A stretch of 64,000 nt of DNA, taken from the IMG/VR virus record IMGVR_UViG_3300042901_002340; one strand, 5' to 3'. The position numbers and the translations under genes are program-made. The notes beneath the pieces are model-generated. The model worked only from the letters and a program-made list of their open reading frames with translations, had not been told where the DNA came from and did not search any database. The DNA comes from a virus (lineage: Duplodnaviria; Heunggongvirae; Uroviricota; Caudoviricetes). How positions within the stretch are numbered: position 1 is the first letter of the stretch; every line of letters starts with the position of its first letter. This document shows, in pieces, positions 12,157 through 55,786 of this stretch.

Positions 12157-12188
12157 AAAAAAAAGGAATATTTTCATATTCCTTTTTT
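12157..12188 (-). terminator. Intrinsic terminator after the portal genes
   Basis: aaaaaaggaatat-tttc-atattcctttttt hairpin with U-tract. Confidence 0.8.
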
Positions 12189-12191
12189 ATT

Positions 12192-13841
12192 CTATAGAGT
12201 TACTTGTGGGGGTTTTTCTTCGCCCTCTCCCGCGGGCGGTGTTTCCTCAGTGGCTCCTGGTGCAGGCTGTTCACCTCCTCCTTCAGCCGGAGCTGGAGCA
12301 GCCGCTGCTTTCTCCTCATTCTTCTTATATTCGTCATTCAATTTAAGTTGGTCTGGTGACATACCTAAAAATCTCTGTATAAGGAAATCATTATCGAAAT
12401 ATGGTACATCCTCCTCACCAGATTTCACTTTAAGATCCGCAAGACCCACTATAAATTCACCTTTCTTTTTAAGATTTGTCATTTCAACCTGATCCTCGAA
12501 TTCAAGATCTCTATTAAAATCTAAACCGATATTGGATTTAAAATTTCTATCTTTGGCTAATTCAGGATAATCGAGACACATTTGTATATAAAGGGGTTTT
12601 ACTAATATTTCCTGAAAAATCGATCTAAGTCTTCTTAAGAATTTCTCAAATCTTATCTCATCTCTCTCCAATTGATCTATGGCTATCTGATAGTTAGCCG
12701 GGGTTCCGTTTTTTGCTGCAAATCTTGCATAAGGAATTTTAGAATCCATCTTTAACTTATTAAAGAAATAAAGAACATTGTCCATCACATTAAAATCTGG
12801 TCCAGCAGGATTAAGAGAAGATATTTCAGGAGAAACTCCATTCTGTTCAGGAAATAAATAATTCTTATAGAATTGTACCTTAGGTCTACCATTAACTGTT
12901 AATTCCCCCGATGAGTCATTTATACTAATTTCCTCCTTATAATTGGACATAAGTTGTCCAAGGGTCTGCATAGCCTTTTGTGGTGATTGTGTACCGATCG
13001 GTATAATGAATTTCATTCGGTAACTAGCATTCATAACATTCCAAATAACCCTGGAATTTTCCATTATTCTTAGAATATTATAAGATCTAACAAGTCTTTC
13101 AACGTAACTAGTTCTTGATATGGTATTACCCTTAGCATATGAGATGTATATTATTTGTTCATTAGTAAGCTTTCTATACATCTGTGGATTACCCGGATAT
13201 TGAATCCAGAATTGTTTATATTCACTCTCTCCAACTCTTTCAACCACAGGTTCAAGCGAAGCTGCATCCAATTCCTTGAATCCTATTATTTCCTTGCCCT
13301 TACTATCATAAATAATCTCAAATGCTAGAAACCCATCTATGATAAACTGTCTAAAATATTGCCAACCTAAAACTGTATTTTGAAACTGAAATATATTATA
13401 GATTCTATTAAAATGAGACATTACTTTTTCTTTCACCTTATCTTTCAGATCCAGATTTGAAAATGAAGGTTGTGCAAAATAATTTCTGTCATCATAAACT
13501 ATAGCCTCGTCAGTTATTATATCAAGTATAAATTCAATCTCTCCATTTATTGAGAATTTTCTAAGGTAGTTTCTTTTTTCGATATATGACTTATCGAAAT
13601 ATGCTATATACTTTCTTACCTTTGTGTCATGGTAGGAAGCGGTCCATTGAAATGCACTATCCTTTGTATATCCTGTTCCCTCCTGATTAAAAAAAGCTCC
13701 CTCGGTCCTACCTATAGCCTGCGAGTTCCTAACAATCATATCATCATATTGCATACCAAACTTGGAAATATTACCAAGATTTTTCAATATGTTACCTAAT
13801 GCTGCTTGATTTGGTTTTAAATAGTCTAAAAATCCTGCCAT
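12192..13841 (-). CDS. Portal protein (gp20-like), paralog B
   Basis: EIEFILDIITDEAIV, YFRQFIIDG, LRIMENSRVIW, RDEIRFEKFLRRLRSIFQ. Confidence 0.9.
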   Translation of the reverse strand: MAGFLDYLKPNQAALGNILKNLGNISKFGMQYDDMIVRNSQAIGRTEGAFFNQEGTGYTKDSAFQWTASYHDTKVRKYIAYFDKSYIEKRNYLRKFSINGEIEFILDIITDEAIVYDDRNYFAQPSFSNLDLKDKVKEKVMSHFNRIYNIFQFQNTVLGWQYFRQFIIDGFLAFEIIYDSKGKEIIGFKELDAASLEPVVERVGESEYKQFWIQYPGNPQMYRKLTNEQIIYISYAKGNTISRTSYVERLVRSYNILRIMENSRVIWNVMNASYRMKFIIPIGTQSPQKAMQTLGQLMSNYKEEISINDSSGELTVNGRPKVQFYKNYLFPEQNGVSPEISSLNPAGPDFNVMDNVLYFFNKLKMDSKIPYARFAAKNGTPANYQIAIDQLERDEIRFEKFLRRLRSIFQEILVKPLYIQMCLDYPELAKDRNFKSNIGLDFNRDLEFEDQVEMTNLKKKGEFIVGLADLKVKSGEEDVPYFDNDFLIQRFLGMSPDQLKLNDEYKKNEEKAAAAPAPAEGGGEQPAPGATEETPPAGEGEEKPPQVTL

Positions 13842-13845
13842 CTTA

Positions 13846-15462
13846 TTATAATGTTACTTGAGGTGGTTTTTCTTCTCCTCCTTCTTTTTTGCCTTCCTCG
13901 CCTTCTTTAGGTTTCTCTGCCTTTGCTTTTTCTTTCGCTTTTCTTTCTTTGGCTTCCTTATTTGCTGTTATATCTTGCTTCGACATCCCTAGATATTCCT
14001 CAATAAGGAAAGCATTAGAGAAGAAAGGTTTTCCTTCGTCATTTAGAAGTCCTCCAAGACCAGTTATGGTCTCTTTCCTTTGTGCCATCTTTGCTATTTC
14101 CTGATTCTCTTTAAATGGATTATCCGACCAATAGCTAAGACCCAATTGACTTTTAAAAAGGAAATCTTTCTCCAGTTGCGGATACTTATTAACCATCTGT
14201 ATCCACATAGGCTTAACTAATATTTCCTGGAAAACAGATCTAAGTCTAGAAATAAATTTATAAAATCTTATCTCTTCTTTATCTAGACCTTCCGCACCAT
14301 TCGAATATGGAGATGTACTACCACCATCAGGATTGTGAAATCTCGAAGGAGGAACTTTAGACTCAAGTATAAACTTATCAAAGAAATATGTCAATGGAGC
14401 AGGATCATTAAGATTAGGACCCTCCGTATTAATAGGCTCTATAGTTGGTGTACCATTAACTCCAGAAGGCATAAGGTAGTTTTTATAGAATTGTATTTTA
14501 GGTCTACCATCAACTGTAAGTTCACCACTCTCATCATTAAGTTGTATATCTTCTTTATAAACACTCATAAGTTCACCCAATGTTTGCATACCTTTTTGTT
14601 GAGATTTAGTCCCGATTGGAACAGTCATCTTCAATTTAAAGGAAGCATTCATAACAGACCATATGACTCTCGTATATTCTATTATTCTCAATATATTATA
14701 GGGTCTTATTAATCTCTCGATGTAACTAACCCTAGATATAGAGTTTCCTTTAGCATATGAGATATAGATTATCTGAGGATCATAAAGGGTTCTTTTCTTC
14801 TTGGGATCCTGTGGATATTGTGTCCATGTGCTAACAAAACTACCATCCAGTTGTTTTTCAACACTTGGTATTAAAGTTACAGGATCAAGTTCCTTGAAAC
14901 CAACTATTTTTTTACCGGTATCGTCATAAACGATCTCAAACGAAAGAAATCCGTCTATAATGAATTGTCTAAAGTATTGCCATGCAGTTATATCATCAGA
15001 GAATCCCCATATATCATACAGATTTTTATAAACATCATAGAGTTCATCCTTGACTTTCTCGTTTACGTCAGTCAAATCTATAAAATCTGGATATGCAAAA
15101 AAGTTTGCTGGATCATAAGTTATAGCTTCATCACAGATTGTATCAAGAACCCATTCAACCTCCGGATTAAGAGAAAACATTCTTAAAAAGTCCCTCTTTC
15201 CCTTATAATCTTTATCAAAATAACCTATAAATTGTCTGGTGGTAACATCCTGCTTTGCAAGAGCCCATAACATACTCTCGTCCTCGACATTTGACTTATT
15301 TTTATTAAGAAATGCTGCTTCAGTTACACCGACAGCTTGCGAATTTCTTATTACCATATCATCATACTTCATACCAAAGGTACTCAGTTTTTTAACTGAT
15401 TCCCTTATTCTCTGTACAACCGGTGATTCCGATGGCTTATTATTATCTACAAAACCTGCCAT
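13846..15462 (-). CDS. Portal protein (gp20-like), paralog A
   Basis: PEVEWVLDTICDEAI, YFRQFIIDG, SKVPPSRF, KEEIRFYKFISRLRSVFQ. Confidence 0.9.
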   Translation of the reverse strand: MAGFVDNNKPSESPVVQRIRESVKKLSTFGMKYDDMVIRNSQAVGVTEAAFLNKNKSNVEDESMLWALAKQDVTTRQFIGYFDKDYKGKRDFLRMFSLNPEVEWVLDTICDEAITYDPANFFAYPDFIDLTDVNEKVKDELYDVYKNLYDIWGFSDDITAWQYFRQFIIDGFLSFEIVYDDTGKKIVGFKELDPVTLIPSVEKQLDGSFVSTWTQYPQDPKKKRTLYDPQIIYISYAKGNSISRVSYIERLIRPYNILRIIEYTRVIWSVMNASFKLKMTVPIGTKSQQKGMQTLGELMSVYKEDIQLNDESGELTVDGRPKIQFYKNYLMPSGVNGTPTIEPINTEGPNLNDPAPLTYFFDKFILESKVPPSRFHNPDGGSTSPYSNGAEGLDKEEIRFYKFISRLRSVFQEILVKPMWIQMVNKYPQLEKDFLFKSQLGLSYWSDNPFKENQEIAKMAQRKETITGLGGLLNDEGKPFFSNAFLIEEYLGMSKQDITANKEAKERKAKEKAKAEKPKEGEEGKKEGGEEKPPQVTL

Positions 15463-15482
15463 TTATTTTATTTTTTGATATT

Positions 15483-15490
15483 TATATATC
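15483..15490 (-). promoter_or_regulatory. Putative late promoter GATATATA (portal operon)
   Basis: Octamer 21 nt upstream of ATG. Confidence 0.75.
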
Positions 15491-27781: not shown

Positions 27782-28357
27782 TTATAAAAATAGATCCTCC
27801 CAGTAATCACAAACCCATGATGTTCTTATGGTATAGATAGCAGGAGTTTCATAATCAAGATCCATTGCGTTTATAGGTTCACTTATGAAGCAAGAAGGAA
27901 TTCTTATTCTTCTAAAAACATCACCTTGTTTATTAAATATTGAAATTAGGATGGATCCAACATAGTCATTTTTAAGACCCATCGCTCCAGTTAGAGGATT
28001 ATAGATCAAATCAGACCATTGTCTAAGTATTTTGTAAAGCTCCATAGAATTGGAGTTATTAAGGTTGACCTCAAATTCCATGGAAAGATTCATATCACTA
28101 GTTTGAGGTTCACCTCCAGCATATCTTCTGGTAGCAAACTTATAGTTTTGATTTACCGTCTGTGCAGGAGCAATATCAACAGCTAATCCTGTTATAGATT
28201 TAACCTGCTGAGTCAATATGCTTTCACCATTAAAAGTTGTACTAGCCGAAACTATAGCAGCAGGTGGGCTTATCAGTACTTCAAACTGATTAAGAAATAC
28301 AGGCTCAAAATTATTTATACCTGCAAGTGAATTTGTAAAATGTGGTAATCCAGCCAT
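27782..28357 (-). CDS. Tail tube protein (gp19-like), paralog B
   Basis: Follows sheath; EPVFLNQFEV, RQWSDLIYNPLTG, CDYWED. Confidence 0.85.
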   Translation of the reverse strand: MAGLPHFTNSLAGINNFEPVFLNQFEVLISPPAAIVSASTTFNGESILTQQVKSITGLAVDIAPAQTVNQNYKFATRRYAGGEPQTSDMNLSMEFEVNLNNSNSMELYKILRQWSDLIYNPLTGAMGLKNDYVGSILISIFNKQGDVFRRIRIPSCFISEPINAMDLDYETPAIYTIRTSWVCDYWEDLFL

Positions 28358-28371
28358 TTATATTTTTTATT

Positions 28372-28926
28372 TTATAGGAATAGATCGTCCCAATAATCAA
28401 CGGCAAATACCATATCATCTATCTTATATAGATCAGTACTTGTGTAGTTTAGATTCATTGGTGAGATAGGTTTAGTCGGAAACGTATCCTTGCATGTTAT
28501 TCTCCTATAAACGTCACCAGCTTTATTGAAAACCGAAATAATTATAGTTCCAGTGTAGTCATTTTTAAGACCCATCGCTCCAGTTAGAGGATTATAGATC
28601 AAATCAGACCACTGTCTTAAAGTTTTAAAGACGTACATGGAATTTGCATCATTAAGGTTGACGCTGAACGTTATACTAAGATCCATAAAGGTATTCTCAG
28701 GTTTCGATCCCGCATAATTCCTTTTAGCAAATTTATATTTCTGTTGAACCGTTCCTGGATTTTTATCTAGAGAAAGTCCATTAACCTTGCTAACGTGTTG
28801 TAATAAAATGTTACCACCCGCTATAGCAGCCGGTGGTATTATTGTTACCTCGAATTGATTCAGATAAACAGGTTCATACTTGTTTATCGATGATAGTGAA
28901 TTTTGATAATGTGATAGTCCTGCCAT
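28372..28926 (-). CDS. Tail tube protein (gp19-like), paralog A
   Basis: EPVYLNQFEV, RQWSDLIYNPLTG, FPT, VDYWDD. Confidence 0.85.
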   Translation of the reverse strand: MAGLSHYQNSLSSINKYEPVYLNQFEVTIIPPAAIAGGNILLQHVSKVNGLSLDKNPGTVQQKYKFAKRNYAGSKPENTFMDLSITFSVNLNDANSMYVFKTLRQWSDLIYNPLTGAMGLKNDYTGTIIISVFNKAGDVYRRITCKDTFPTKPISPMNLNYTSTDLYKIDDMVFAVDYWDDLFL

Positions 28927-53350: not shown

Positions 53351-53785
53351 TTAATATTTAGCTATAAAATCACTACATATACCAATACATAGATTTAATT
53401 GGTCGTCGTTTATTTCCGGCATAACTGCAATACTTTTATCTATTGGTTGCTTTCCTGGATATGCCCATATATAATTTGTCGAAGTTAGAGTGATTGTATC
53501 TGTTTCGTGCCAAAAATAATTAAAATCATATTGTGTGATTTTAAAAAAAATAACAGCATCCATATTTTTACAATGTATCCATAATTTGGTCAATCTGTCT
53601 CTAAACCATCTAAAATCTACACCATATTGAGGTTTATCGTGACCTAGATATAAAACACCGTCAACATACCACACATCAACTTCAACATCAAAACCTTTAT
53701 TTATTGCTAAATCAATATATGTTGGTTCATTTTCCCATGATTCCATTGGACCATTCGTGTTTCCTCTGTGTGCAATCAGTATCAT
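53351..53785 (-). CDS. Short glycerophosphodiester phosphodiesterase-like protein
   Basis: IAHRGN, EN, DVEVDV, LGHD, WIHCKN, GICSD. Confidence 0.75.
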   Translation of the reverse strand: MILIAHRGNTNGPMESWENEPTYIDLAINKGFDVEVDVWYVDGVLYLGHDKPQYGVDFRWFRDRLTKLWIHCKNMDAVIFFKITQYDFNYFWHETDTITLTSTNYIWAYPGKQPIDKSIAVMPEINDDQLNLCIGICSDFIAKY

Positions 53786-54753
53786 ATCTTGTCGATTAAA
53801 TTTATTTTATAGTAACTCTCTACCTCCTTTTGGTGTGTTCTATCTGGCGTGTTTATTGTGTTGTATGCCATATGTAAACAAAATCCATTCCTTATAAAAA
53901 CCATATGAAGATCGTTTTTTTCCATGTATAAATTGAGTGGAACCTCGTCATAAGAATCCCTAAATAAGCTGGAATCCTCTATTATTTTTTTCCACGTTTC
54001 TGTTTTTATGAAATAGAAGCTATTACAGAAGTATGGAAATTTTAAAATCTCCATTCTGTATTCATTTTTTTCAAGTAATCTTTTTGGGTTTTTACAGATA
54101 TATTCTGCTAATTTATTATGAGCATCTATAGAAACTCTAACTGGATGTATCCCTTTGTAATGATGATTTATTTTTTTAACATCATTATAGAAATCTATTC
54201 CCCAAGTTTTTCTTTCTTTGTTCAGTACCTCATAATTTGCACCCCATAAATTCTCTATTCTAGTATCAATAAAAGTGGAATGTAGAGATTCTTTTTCATC
54301 CGTTGTACAAAAGTCTTCTATGAAAAGATCCACCGAAGGTATACCATTAGAAATAAGTGGTGCTATAAATAAATTTTTTTCGTTATTTAATATTTCTAAA
54401 TTATCTATTACATAATCCCACAAATATGAGGATATTAATATATCATCATCCATTGAGCATGAATATCTATATTCAGAATTTATTAGATATTTTATTTTAT
54501 TCAGATAATTTGTTCCGGTCTCGTCATTTTTATCCAAACATACATCTATTGAGGATAAACCGGAACTGATAAGTTCGGATGATTTTTCCTTCCATATTGA
54601 TGCTTCGTGATTATTAGAAAAACAAATAACTATAATAACTCCTGTCTTATTTTTTATTTTTTTTATTTCGTCTATTGCTCTAGTAGTGAAATCGAGACGA
54701 TCAGTATTATGTACTAGAATGTTTACTTGTAGAATTTTTTCTTCGTTAACCAT
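53782..54753 (-). CDS. Uncharacterised GT-A-fold glycosyltransferase, paralog 1
   Basis: SMDDDI DxD-type motif; GIPSV, YKGIHPVR, DEVPLN. Confidence 0.6.
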   Translation of the reverse strand: MVNEEKILQVNILVHNTDRLDFTTRAIDEIKKIKNKTGVIIVICFSNNHEASIWKEKSSELISSGLSSIDVCLDKNDETGTNYLNKIKYLINSEYRYSCSMDDDILISSYLWDYVIDNLEILNNEKNLFIAPLISNGIPSVDLFIEDFCTTDEKESLHSTFIDTRIENLWGANYEVLNKERKTWGIDFYNDVKKINHHYKGIHPVRVSIDAHNKLAEYICKNPKRLLEKNEYRMEILKFPYFCNSFYFIKTETWKKIIEDSSLFRDSYDEVPLNLYMEKNDLHMVFIRNGFCLHMAYNTINTPDRTHQKEVESYYKINLIDKI

Positions 54754-55786
54754 AAAGTGAATTTATAAAATTTAACTCATATTCAGCAAGAGTTAAATCA
54801 GGCTTATCTATGTTACTCCCACCATTTATATTGTTTAGACACCATCTCCAATTATATGTTATATGTATTGCATAACCACCCATTATCACTAAGTGCGGAA
54901 GATTATTATCCCATGAATATCTATTAATTGGTACCTCGTCACATCCATCTATGATAAGATTTTCTACGTTTATTATTCTATCATAATTATCAGTTTTTAT
55001 AACAAAACACATATCGCAGAGATATGTCGAGGGATCCAATTTACTAATACTGCATTCTTTCTCTTCGAAGAATTTTTCCCTGTTATTTATTATGCCTTCA
55101 TTTATTAGAGAATTACCGAATCCATGTCTTATCGGATGGATTCCTTTATAGAACTTACAGTAATTATTCCCCGTTCTACCATTTCCCATATCTGGGAGTC
55201 CATCTGCATAAGAGTTTAGGTACGTGTAATAATTTTTATAATCCCAATCATTTTCATTATTAACAGATTGACAATTTAATGGTGTGTAATCCATTACGCC
55301 CTCTTGTATATGAAATAGACATTTTTTAAATTCTGATCTTATACGTGTTGCATCATCCTCGTTGAAGAAATCATCTATGAAATATTCTACCGATGGTATA
55401 CCTGTTGATATAGTTGGGGATAAAGTTAAAACAGAATCGTCATCAAGAACATTAAGATTAGATATAATATGATTTATTGTATATGCAGGGATAAGTACAT
55501 CATTATCCAATTTCAATATGTATTTATATCCATTGGTTTTTGAATATTCTATAGCATATCTGACTTTTGGTAGATAATTGCTCTGCGGACAATCGACGTA
55601 TGCGCACTCGAAGTCTATTCCGGAATCGGTGAGATTTTCTGTGTAGTAAGAAGAATCGGGATCAGAATTTACTATCAGTAACTTGATCTCTTTTATTTGC
55701 CCACATTTTTCTATTTCTTTTTTAATTTTATCAAAAACAAAATATCTATCGTTGCTCGTTAGATAAAATATTAATAGTTTATTCAT
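54746..55786 (-). CDS. Uncharacterised GT-A-fold glycosyltransferase, paralog 2
   Basis: KLDNDV; GIPSV, YKGIHPIR, DEVPIN. Confidence 0.6.
   Translation of the reverse strand: MNKLLIFYLTSNDRYFVFDKIKKEIEKCGQIKEIKLLIVNSDPDSSYYTENLTDSGIDFECAYVDCPQSNYLPKVRYAIEYSKTNGYKYILKLDNDVLIPAYTINHIISNLNVLDDDSVLTLSPTISTGIPSVEYFIDDFFNEDDATRIRSEFKKCLFHIQEGVMDYTPLNCQSVNNENDWDYKNYYTYLNSYADGLPDMGNGRTGNNYCKFYKGIHPIRHGFGNSLINEGIINNREKFFEEKECSISKLDPSTYLCDMCFVIKTDNYDRIINVENLIIDGCDEVPINRYSWDNNLPHLVIMGGYAIHITYNWRWCLNNINGGSNIDKPDLTLAEYELNFINSLYG

Follow-up and report, generated by a model that had tools for sequence, protein, structure and literature searches.

Introduction

No machine of tailed phages and herpesviruses is more conserved than the portal. 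To our knowledge every portal solved so far consists of twelve copies of a single protein arranged in a ring, and this ring is the starting point for ideas on the symmetry mismatch between capsid, motor and tail. Here we describe two neighbouring portal genes, called A and B, which are found in a stretch of 64,000 nucleotides (the window, i.e. the whole stretch of DNA that was analysed) of an uncultured giant tailed phage, IMG/VR record IMGVR_UViG_3300042901_002340. The record is complete, with 430,120 bp and direct terminal repeats.

The best sequence and fold match of both gene products is gp20 of phage T4. In the T4 portal the beta-sheet of the clip shares strands between neighbouring subunits, the tunnel loops touch each other round the ring and influence the subunit number, and this inter-subunit sheet together with the contacts from tunnel loop to tunnel loop holds the dodecamer together (PMC4493910). 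The clip helix alpha6 binds the terminase and the arms of gp13 (PMC4493910; PMC12929587). The crown faces the interior of the capsid and is suspected to be in contact with the scaffold (PMC7136217), and the step from 12-fold to 6-fold symmetry falls between gp13 (12 copies) and gp14 (6 copies) (PMC12929587).

The two genes of the window are predicted to encode complete portal subunits of this type, which a clade of giant phages has kept side by side since an ancient duplication. This clade-wide retention suggests, as the leading hypothesis, that both products are built into one hetero-oligomeric portal ring. New here is the conserved arrangement of two genes; the proteins themselves are ordinary members of a known family.

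Two complete portal genes in tandem

Both genes are located on the minus strand. The two intact open reading frames (ORFs), only four nucleotides apart, were recovered exactly where a preliminary description of this DNA had placed them:

13846..15462, minus strand: portal paralog B, T4 gp20 type, 538 aa, the upstream gene (PF07230, phrog_213, AlphaFold2 fold match)
13842..13845, minus strand: spacer TAAG of 4 nt from the stop of B to the start of A, a tight coupling (read from the sequence)
12192..13841, minus strand: portal paralog A, T4 gp20 type, 549 aa, the downstream gene (PF07230, phrog_213, phmmer, AlphaFold2 fold match)

The Pfam profile Portal_T4 (PF07230), with a cut-off of 22.9 bits and a length of 433 positions, is matched by A with 230.8 bits (E 3e-68, profile positions 4-432) and by B with 192 bits (E 2e-56, positions 9-430). 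Both proteins also match phrog_213, which is annotated as 'portal protein' (E 2e-68 for A and 2e-54 for B), and a phmmer comparison of A with the PDB entries 3JA7/6UZC gave an E value of 2e-21. For both monomer models built with AlphaFold2 (AF2) the best match in the PDB is the T4 gp20 chain, with E 3e-19 for A (predicted local distance difference test score, pLDDT, 62) and E 6e-15 for B (pLDDT 61), and the remaining PDB matches listed for the two models are portal or portal-neck (connector) structures only. About 450-527 columns could be aligned to T4 gp20. The template modelling (TM) scores of these alignments are modest (0.36-0.47), because the orientations of the domains in the monomer models are uncertain. 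Wing, stem helix alpha5, clip, stem helix alpha7, tunnel loop, long bent helix and crown follow each other in this order in both models. With profile matches that run nearly from end to end and a complete order of elements, A and B are both full-length portals, and neither copy lacks a conserved portal element, a lack which the preliminary description had named as one of the results that would refute its reading.

A and B are 50% identical across 505 aa and form the strongest paralog pair of the genome. This bears out the clear divergence of the copies that had been noted earlier and does not fit a recent duplication. The genome of 430,120 bp contains exactly two portal genes and no third one. 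Both proteins start with MAGF.

Retention of the pair across the clade

A scan of IMG/VR with A as query yielded 80 loci with 65-93% identity. Two of them begin at a contig edge and are not informative; the other 78 have room upstream, and in each of them an intact B-type gene is followed by an intact A-type gene. The spacer from B to A measures between -1 and 23 nt in all 79 pairs. In the clade two more complete genomes, of 434 kb and 348 kb, contain exactly two portal genes each, and across 58 genomes no loss or gain of a domain was detected in A or B. The question raised in the preliminary description, namely whether the pair is retained clade-wide, can thus be answered with 78 out of 78 informative loci, in which the genes are under strong purifying selection (see below).

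Outside this clade the arrangement is rare. Two full copies occur in none of the 2224 GenBank phage records that carry this portal type. A second portal match was found in one phage only, the 735 kb phage LR756501 (deposited twice), and was rejected as a second portal since it is a fragment of 60 aa within an ORF of 101 aa. Phage G, the one cultivated megaphage, has a single lambda-like portal. A full-text search of the literature brought up no publication on tailed phages with a duplicated or hetero-oligomeric portal.

Origin of the duplication

Portal trees were calculated for 57 distinct genomes together with outgroups. The A proteins and the B proteins each form a monophyletic clade (support 100/100), these two clades are sisters, and their internal topologies mirror each other. 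The stems that follow the duplication are of equal length, with 0.36 and 0.37 substitutions per site. The phages with a single portal, namely LR756500 (462 kb), the LR7565xx phages of 635-735 kb, PTm1, PAU and a T4-like phage, all branch outside of A and B. As judged from these trees, an ancestral T4-type portal gene was duplicated once, in tandem, at the base of this clade of giant phages, and the duplication is ancient.

The nearest single-portal lineage was found when the deepest member of the clade was used as query. It includes a complete genome of 482 kb with one full portal gene, shows about 50% identity to A as well as to B, and is placed as sister to A+B with support 92/79. Because of this support, and because the copy number of the tail-tube gene agrees (see below), a duplication after the split from the single-portal sister lineage is favoured, though not proven. 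An earlier duplication, followed by a loss in the sister lineage, has still to be reckoned with: approximately unbiased (AU) tests reject neither the placement of that lineage with A (p = 0.08) nor its placement with B (p = 0.20).

The portals of the Lak megaphages were omitted from the trees because they are fragmentary under table 11; at the loci L096 and L097 they are read as pieces of about 180 aa and about 70 aa. Lak phages reportedly recode a stop codon, which would account for this fragmentary reading.

Selection and fixed differences between the copies

Both copies evolve under strong constraint. In twelve ortholog pairs the ratio of nonsynonymous to synonymous substitution rates (dN/dS) is 0.012-0.035 for A and 0.008-0.032 for B, values which are rough as dS is saturated. 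The share of columns conserved at 90% or more is equal for A and B in every domain. Taken together, the comparison of the orthologs shows both copies to be kept as predicted full-length portal subunits under strong and equal purifying selection.

The differences between the copies were located by transferring the domain limits of T4 gp20 (PMC4493910) via an alignment to a T4-like portal, so the limits are approximate. The interfaces were mapped at the level of domains. At 32 sites the residue is conserved within each paralog and differs between them. Such fixed differences make up 21% of the columns of the stem, 15% of the tunnel loop and 12% of the clip, and 3% of the wing, 2% of the crown and 1% of the N-terminal region. 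Stem, clip and tunnel loop together hold 22 of them versus 10 elsewhere, while the sites conserved in common number 63 and 99, respectively (odds ratio 3.5, p = 0.003). Dense clusters of fixed differences are seen at A349-361 (channel loop and beginning of alpha7) and at A388-394, where the tunnel loop ends. Among the structured parts the tunnel loop is where A and B resemble each other least (30% identity), although its sequence is conserved inside each paralog. The clip helix alpha6 is largely common to both, and M1, G3 and F4 do not vary in any of the 68 aligned sequences of A, B and the outgroups.

When the fixed differences were polarised by the single-portal outgroups, the ancestral state was found in A at 10 sites, in B at 8 and in neither at 3, with 10 sites being ambiguous. 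The ancestral states split evenly between the copies, and neither A nor B is the unchanged original.

C-terminal tails

In both proteins a low-complexity linker, predicted to be disordered, leads to the same peptide at the C-terminus:

13849..13878, minus strand: C-terminal peptide GEEKPPQVTL of B, at the end of a Lys/Glu-rich disordered linker (pLDDT <50 from residue 517)
12195..12224, minus strand: C-terminal peptide GEEKPPQVTL of A, at the end of a Pro/Ala/Glu-rich disordered linker (pLDDT <50 from residue 515)

The preliminary description had noted that the pair shares an identical nine-residue C-terminus and the MAGF start. For this genome the shared tail holds, and the stretch is in fact ten residues long. 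As a defining feature of the pair it fails, since only 37 of 58 B proteins have a hydrophobic end. A hydrophobic end is present in the A tail of all 58 distinct genomes, and 53 of these follow the pattern [VIFLA]-T-[LIF]. In B the same pattern is found in 36 of 58 genomes and another hydrophobic end residue in one, while the remaining 21, all deep branches included, end with ...PPQE, ...PPAT, ...PAEA or ...KEDK. MAGF is indeed present in both copies of the window, but it is no hallmark of the pair either, as single-portal relatives start with MAGF or MASY. Those relatives also have an acidic or Gly-rich tail whose last residue is hydrophobic or aromatic (...AFKL, ...DLGL, ...NFDF, ...EFEF, ...PEEF). 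Due to their presence in single-portal relatives, the MAGF start and the acidic tail with a hydrophobic end are ancestral features and not signatures of paralogy.

Where both tails of a genome carry the motif, A and B co-vary (QVTL, EVTL, AVTL, AVTI, TATL). At the tail positions -8 to -4 the copies agree at 3.38 of 5 residues within a genome versus 2.10 between genomes. This excess of identity within genomes and the presence of tracts of identical DNA both speak for concerted evolution, limited to the 3' end. The DNA of the two tails is nearly identical in the loci L050 (29 of 30 nt) and L016 (28 of 30 nt), which indicates recent 3' gene conversion there. For the window the situation is different: 25 of 30 nt are identical and 5 of 10 codons differ; within EEKPPQVTL 4 of 9 codons differ synonymously, and the stop codons differ too (TAG vs TAA). 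An explanation by recent gene conversion alone was therefore rejected for the tail of the window, synonymous sites being saturated as well, and the match indicates an older exchange followed by selection on the peptide. In the clade, matching tails go back to episodic gene conversion at the 3' end combined with selection on the peptide.

The linkers (12195-12320 and 13849-13960 in the window; loci L008-L087) are either Lys/Glu-rich or Pro/Thr/Ala/Glu-rich, and these two kinds are swapped between A and B across subclades. The tail of the window, EEKPPQ+VTL, looks like a composite of the B end (EE.PPQE) and the A end (.FTL) of deep branches. We also considered the x-T-L end as a general targeting signal. 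This was rejected, because a low-complexity linker with an x-T-L end is found in only two of the 879 ORFs of the genome, and these two are the portals. The tail follows the crown, the part suspected to contact the scaffold in T4, and a role as a tethered docking peptide for a core or scaffold partner is therefore plausible.

How the two copies may be used

We consider it about as probable as not (0.5) that A and B co-assemble into one hetero-oligomeric portal ring. The stricter form of this reading, in which the portal of the clade is an obligate heterododecamer, most simply an alternating A6B6, is put forward only tentatively. Two proteins would then share one ring at a single portal vertex. 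The invariant N-terminal whisker (MAGF) and the wing, kept by both subunits, would hold this ring in the capsid, and the clip helix alpha6, likewise kept by both, would bind terminase and neck. Reciprocal divergence would have affected the elements that pack the subunits and line the channel, i.e. the beta-strands of the clip, the ends of the stem helices, the channel loop and the tunnel loop, and would have made neither copy dispensable. The flexible acidic C-terminal tail with its hydrophobic end would project from the crown into the interior of the capsid and probably tether a core or scaffold partner there; A always has this end, and B has it only in part of the clade.

Several observations weigh against this reading or leave it less compelling. 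The enrichment of fixed differences in the core of the ring fits a mixed ring without requiring one, and many of these differences are conservative (I/V, D/E, F/M). The domain map itself depends on aligning the proteins with a T4-like portal to which they are about 25% identical, and the confidence of the AF2 monomer models is only moderate (pLDDT 61-62). The asymmetry of the tails, with B often having no hydrophobic end, means that the subunits are not interchangeable, which could fit separate roles equally well. No fused A-B protein was found among the searched proteins of 962-2745 aa, although this is weak evidence.

The strongest competitor is the formation of separate homododecamers by A and B, each with a different essential job, be it in two kinds of particles, at two vertices of one capsid, or in head initiation as opposed to packaging and tail attachment. 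Since both copies keep every portal element, each could form a ring, and each has a conserved tunnel loop of its own. The tails of the deep branches moreover differ systematically, with x-F-T-L in A and ...PPQE or ...KEDK in B. Nevertheless we regard separate rings as rather unlikely. The T4 portal nucleates head assembly, hence one ring per head (PMC4493910, PMC12929587). Distinct roles usually lead to asymmetric divergence, whereas stems, constraint and derived changes are symmetric here, and A and B differ least in the wing that faces the capsid, in the N-whisker and in alpha6, which binds partners, so different external partners are not indicated. Rings with different jobs should have diverged asymmetrically and at the contacts to capsid and partners; A and B do neither, which argues for one mixed ring.

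It is less probable still, and in our opinion doubtful, that only one copy is the portal of the virion and the other one a helper outside the virion (a chaperone or initiator of assembly), a plug or a stacked second ring. Structural paralogs of phages are often co-opted in such ways, T4 gp24 from gp23 and the tube-like baseplate proteins being examples, and strong constraint on both copies would be compatible with it. A helper would not need every portal element, however, that is an invariant capsid-anchoring N-terminus, wing, alpha6 and crown all together, and this again speaks for a mixed ring. In addition, neither copy loses or gains domains across the 58 genomes, and neither behaves as a slow 'original'. 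That the duplicate is simply redundant (by dosage or chance) or an assembly artefact is hardly credible: tandem duplicates do arise through unequal recombination, and gene conversion at the 3' end means that the copies still interact at the DNA level, but 50% identity, saturated dS, 78 independent contigs that come from many samples and show neither a lost copy nor a pseudogene, 32 sites fixed differently and a dN/dS of about 0.02 in both copies are not what a redundant copy, which would have decayed, leaves behind, nor would two redundant rings both persist this long, a further argument for one mixed ring.

Genomic setting of the portal genes

The portal pair is located in a late module for head and tail morphogenesis. 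Immediately upstream lie two genes, one for a late sigma factor like gp55 and one for a head-closure protein like gp4. Farther upstream, on the same strand and within 25 kb, the genes for tube (two copies), sheath, TerL and neck protein follow in the gene order of T4. Two elements flank the pair:

15482..15490, minus strand: late-promoter-like motif GATATATAA, 20 nt 5' of the start codon of B (motif match; putative function)
12157..12188, minus strand: hairpin resembling an intrinsic terminator, GGAATAT-GAAA-ATATTCC + T8, 4 nt past the stop of A (minimum free energy -14.7 kcal/mol, z = -4.4)

The window contains six copies of GATATATAA, all on the coding strand, a count that was reached in 7 of 100 shuffles and is thus not above chance by itself. 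The copies at the minus-strand positions 611, 1268, 4913, 15482, 19202 and 37530 each stand ahead of genes, and the strand bias is complete. The hairpin, whose stem holds just two G-C pairs, was omitted by a consensus terminator scanner. The terminator scan revealed no convincing minus-strand terminator between B and A. The promoter-like site before B, the missing internal terminator and the hairpin after A make it plausible that B and A are co-transcribed from one late unit. No Shine-Dalgarno sequence was found ahead of A or B. This, together with the kinship with Bacteroidota phages, may hint at a host from the Bacteroidota.

A second tandem pair of structural genes in the window encodes tail-tube proteins (27782-28357 and 28372-28926, both minus strand) of 191 and 184 aa, which are 56% identical. 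The number of tube genes tracks the number of portals, with two tube genes in each of the three two-portal genomes checked (430,120 bp, 434 kb and 348 kb) and one each in the single-portal genome of 482 kb and in LR756500. A general duplication of structural genes was rejected as an explanation, because the remaining strong paralog families consist of homing endonucleases and tail fibres, which leaves tube and portal as the only conspicuous cases. The duplication of the tube alongside the portal hints that the DNA channel of these giant phages was remodelled more broadly.

Further paralogs were noted. A third tandem pair of the window (53782-54753 and 54746-55786, both minus strand) encodes proteins of 323 and 346 aa with 29% identity; the genes overlap by 8 nt and have no PHROG match. 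The second-strongest paralog pair of the genome (G000:C1:176464-177951 and G000:C1:222028-223359) consists of proteins of 495 and 443 aa which are 54% identical and have no PHROG match either; the latter gene ends 71 nt from the edge of the window. Three homing-endonuclease paralogs outside the window (G000:C1:194092-194751, 205299-205985 and 206277-206939) are 50-61% identical.

Implications of a possible two-subunit portal

If the heterododecamer is real, it would be the first portal of a tailed virus made from two gene products, and the symmetry of the ring would drop from 12-fold to 6-fold. With alternating A and B the step from 12-fold to 6-fold symmetry would, as a speculation, move into the portal itself. 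Considering the doubled tube as well, the entire path of the DNA, from the capsid down to the baseplate, may have been remade with paired subunits. Having kept two different portal subunits for so long, the clade would be a natural test case for the role of ring symmetry in head initiation, DNA packaging and gating, and likewise for the question of how a machine made of one kind of subunit gets committed to two kinds. T4 gp20 forms rings upon expression in E. coli, and the question can therefore be addressed without culturing the phage.

Comparison with known systems

By sequence as well as by fold, A and B are most similar to T4 gp20 (PF07230; PDB 3JA7, 6UZC, 9MKB, 9LU6/9LU7). They have the same order of portal elements, and their genes are part of a late module ordered as in T4 (neck, TerL, sheath, tube, portal). 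In contrast to T4, whose single portal gene gives rise to a homododecamer, two portal genes are kept clade-wide here. The identity of A and B to T4 gp20 is only about 21-25%, and unlike T4 gp20 they possess an additional conserved N-terminal block (FGM.YDDM..RNSQA.G) as well as a C-terminal linker that is long and of low complexity. As far as we know, every other characterised tailed phage has one portal gene and a homododecameric portal.

The single-portal giant phages nearest to the clade are IMG/VR 3300028558_000016 (482 kb, complete), LR756500.1 (462 kb), LR756504/LR745206/LR756501 (635-735 kb) and the Lak megaphages. They share the portal subfamily with 33-51% identity, the MAGF or MASY start and the acidic or Gly-rich tail, but in contrast to the two-portal clade they have one full portal gene and branch outside of A+B.

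Hetero-oligomeric rings built from paralogs of a duplicated homo-oligomer subunit are well known from the V-ATPase c-ring (Vma3/Vma11/Vma16), from CCT and the thermosome, and from the rings of the proteasome. From general knowledge of these machines, the portal pair resembles them in its ancient duplication, in the obligatory retention of all copies and in its symmetric, reciprocal divergence, which may likewise be concentrated at packing surfaces. The co-assembly of the paralogs has been demonstrated for those rings, whereas for A and B it is suggested by comparison, and none of those rings is a viral portal. [quoted passage not shown] Unlike the portal pair, however, gp24 occupies distinct positions, the pentameric vertices, and its divergence is asymmetric.

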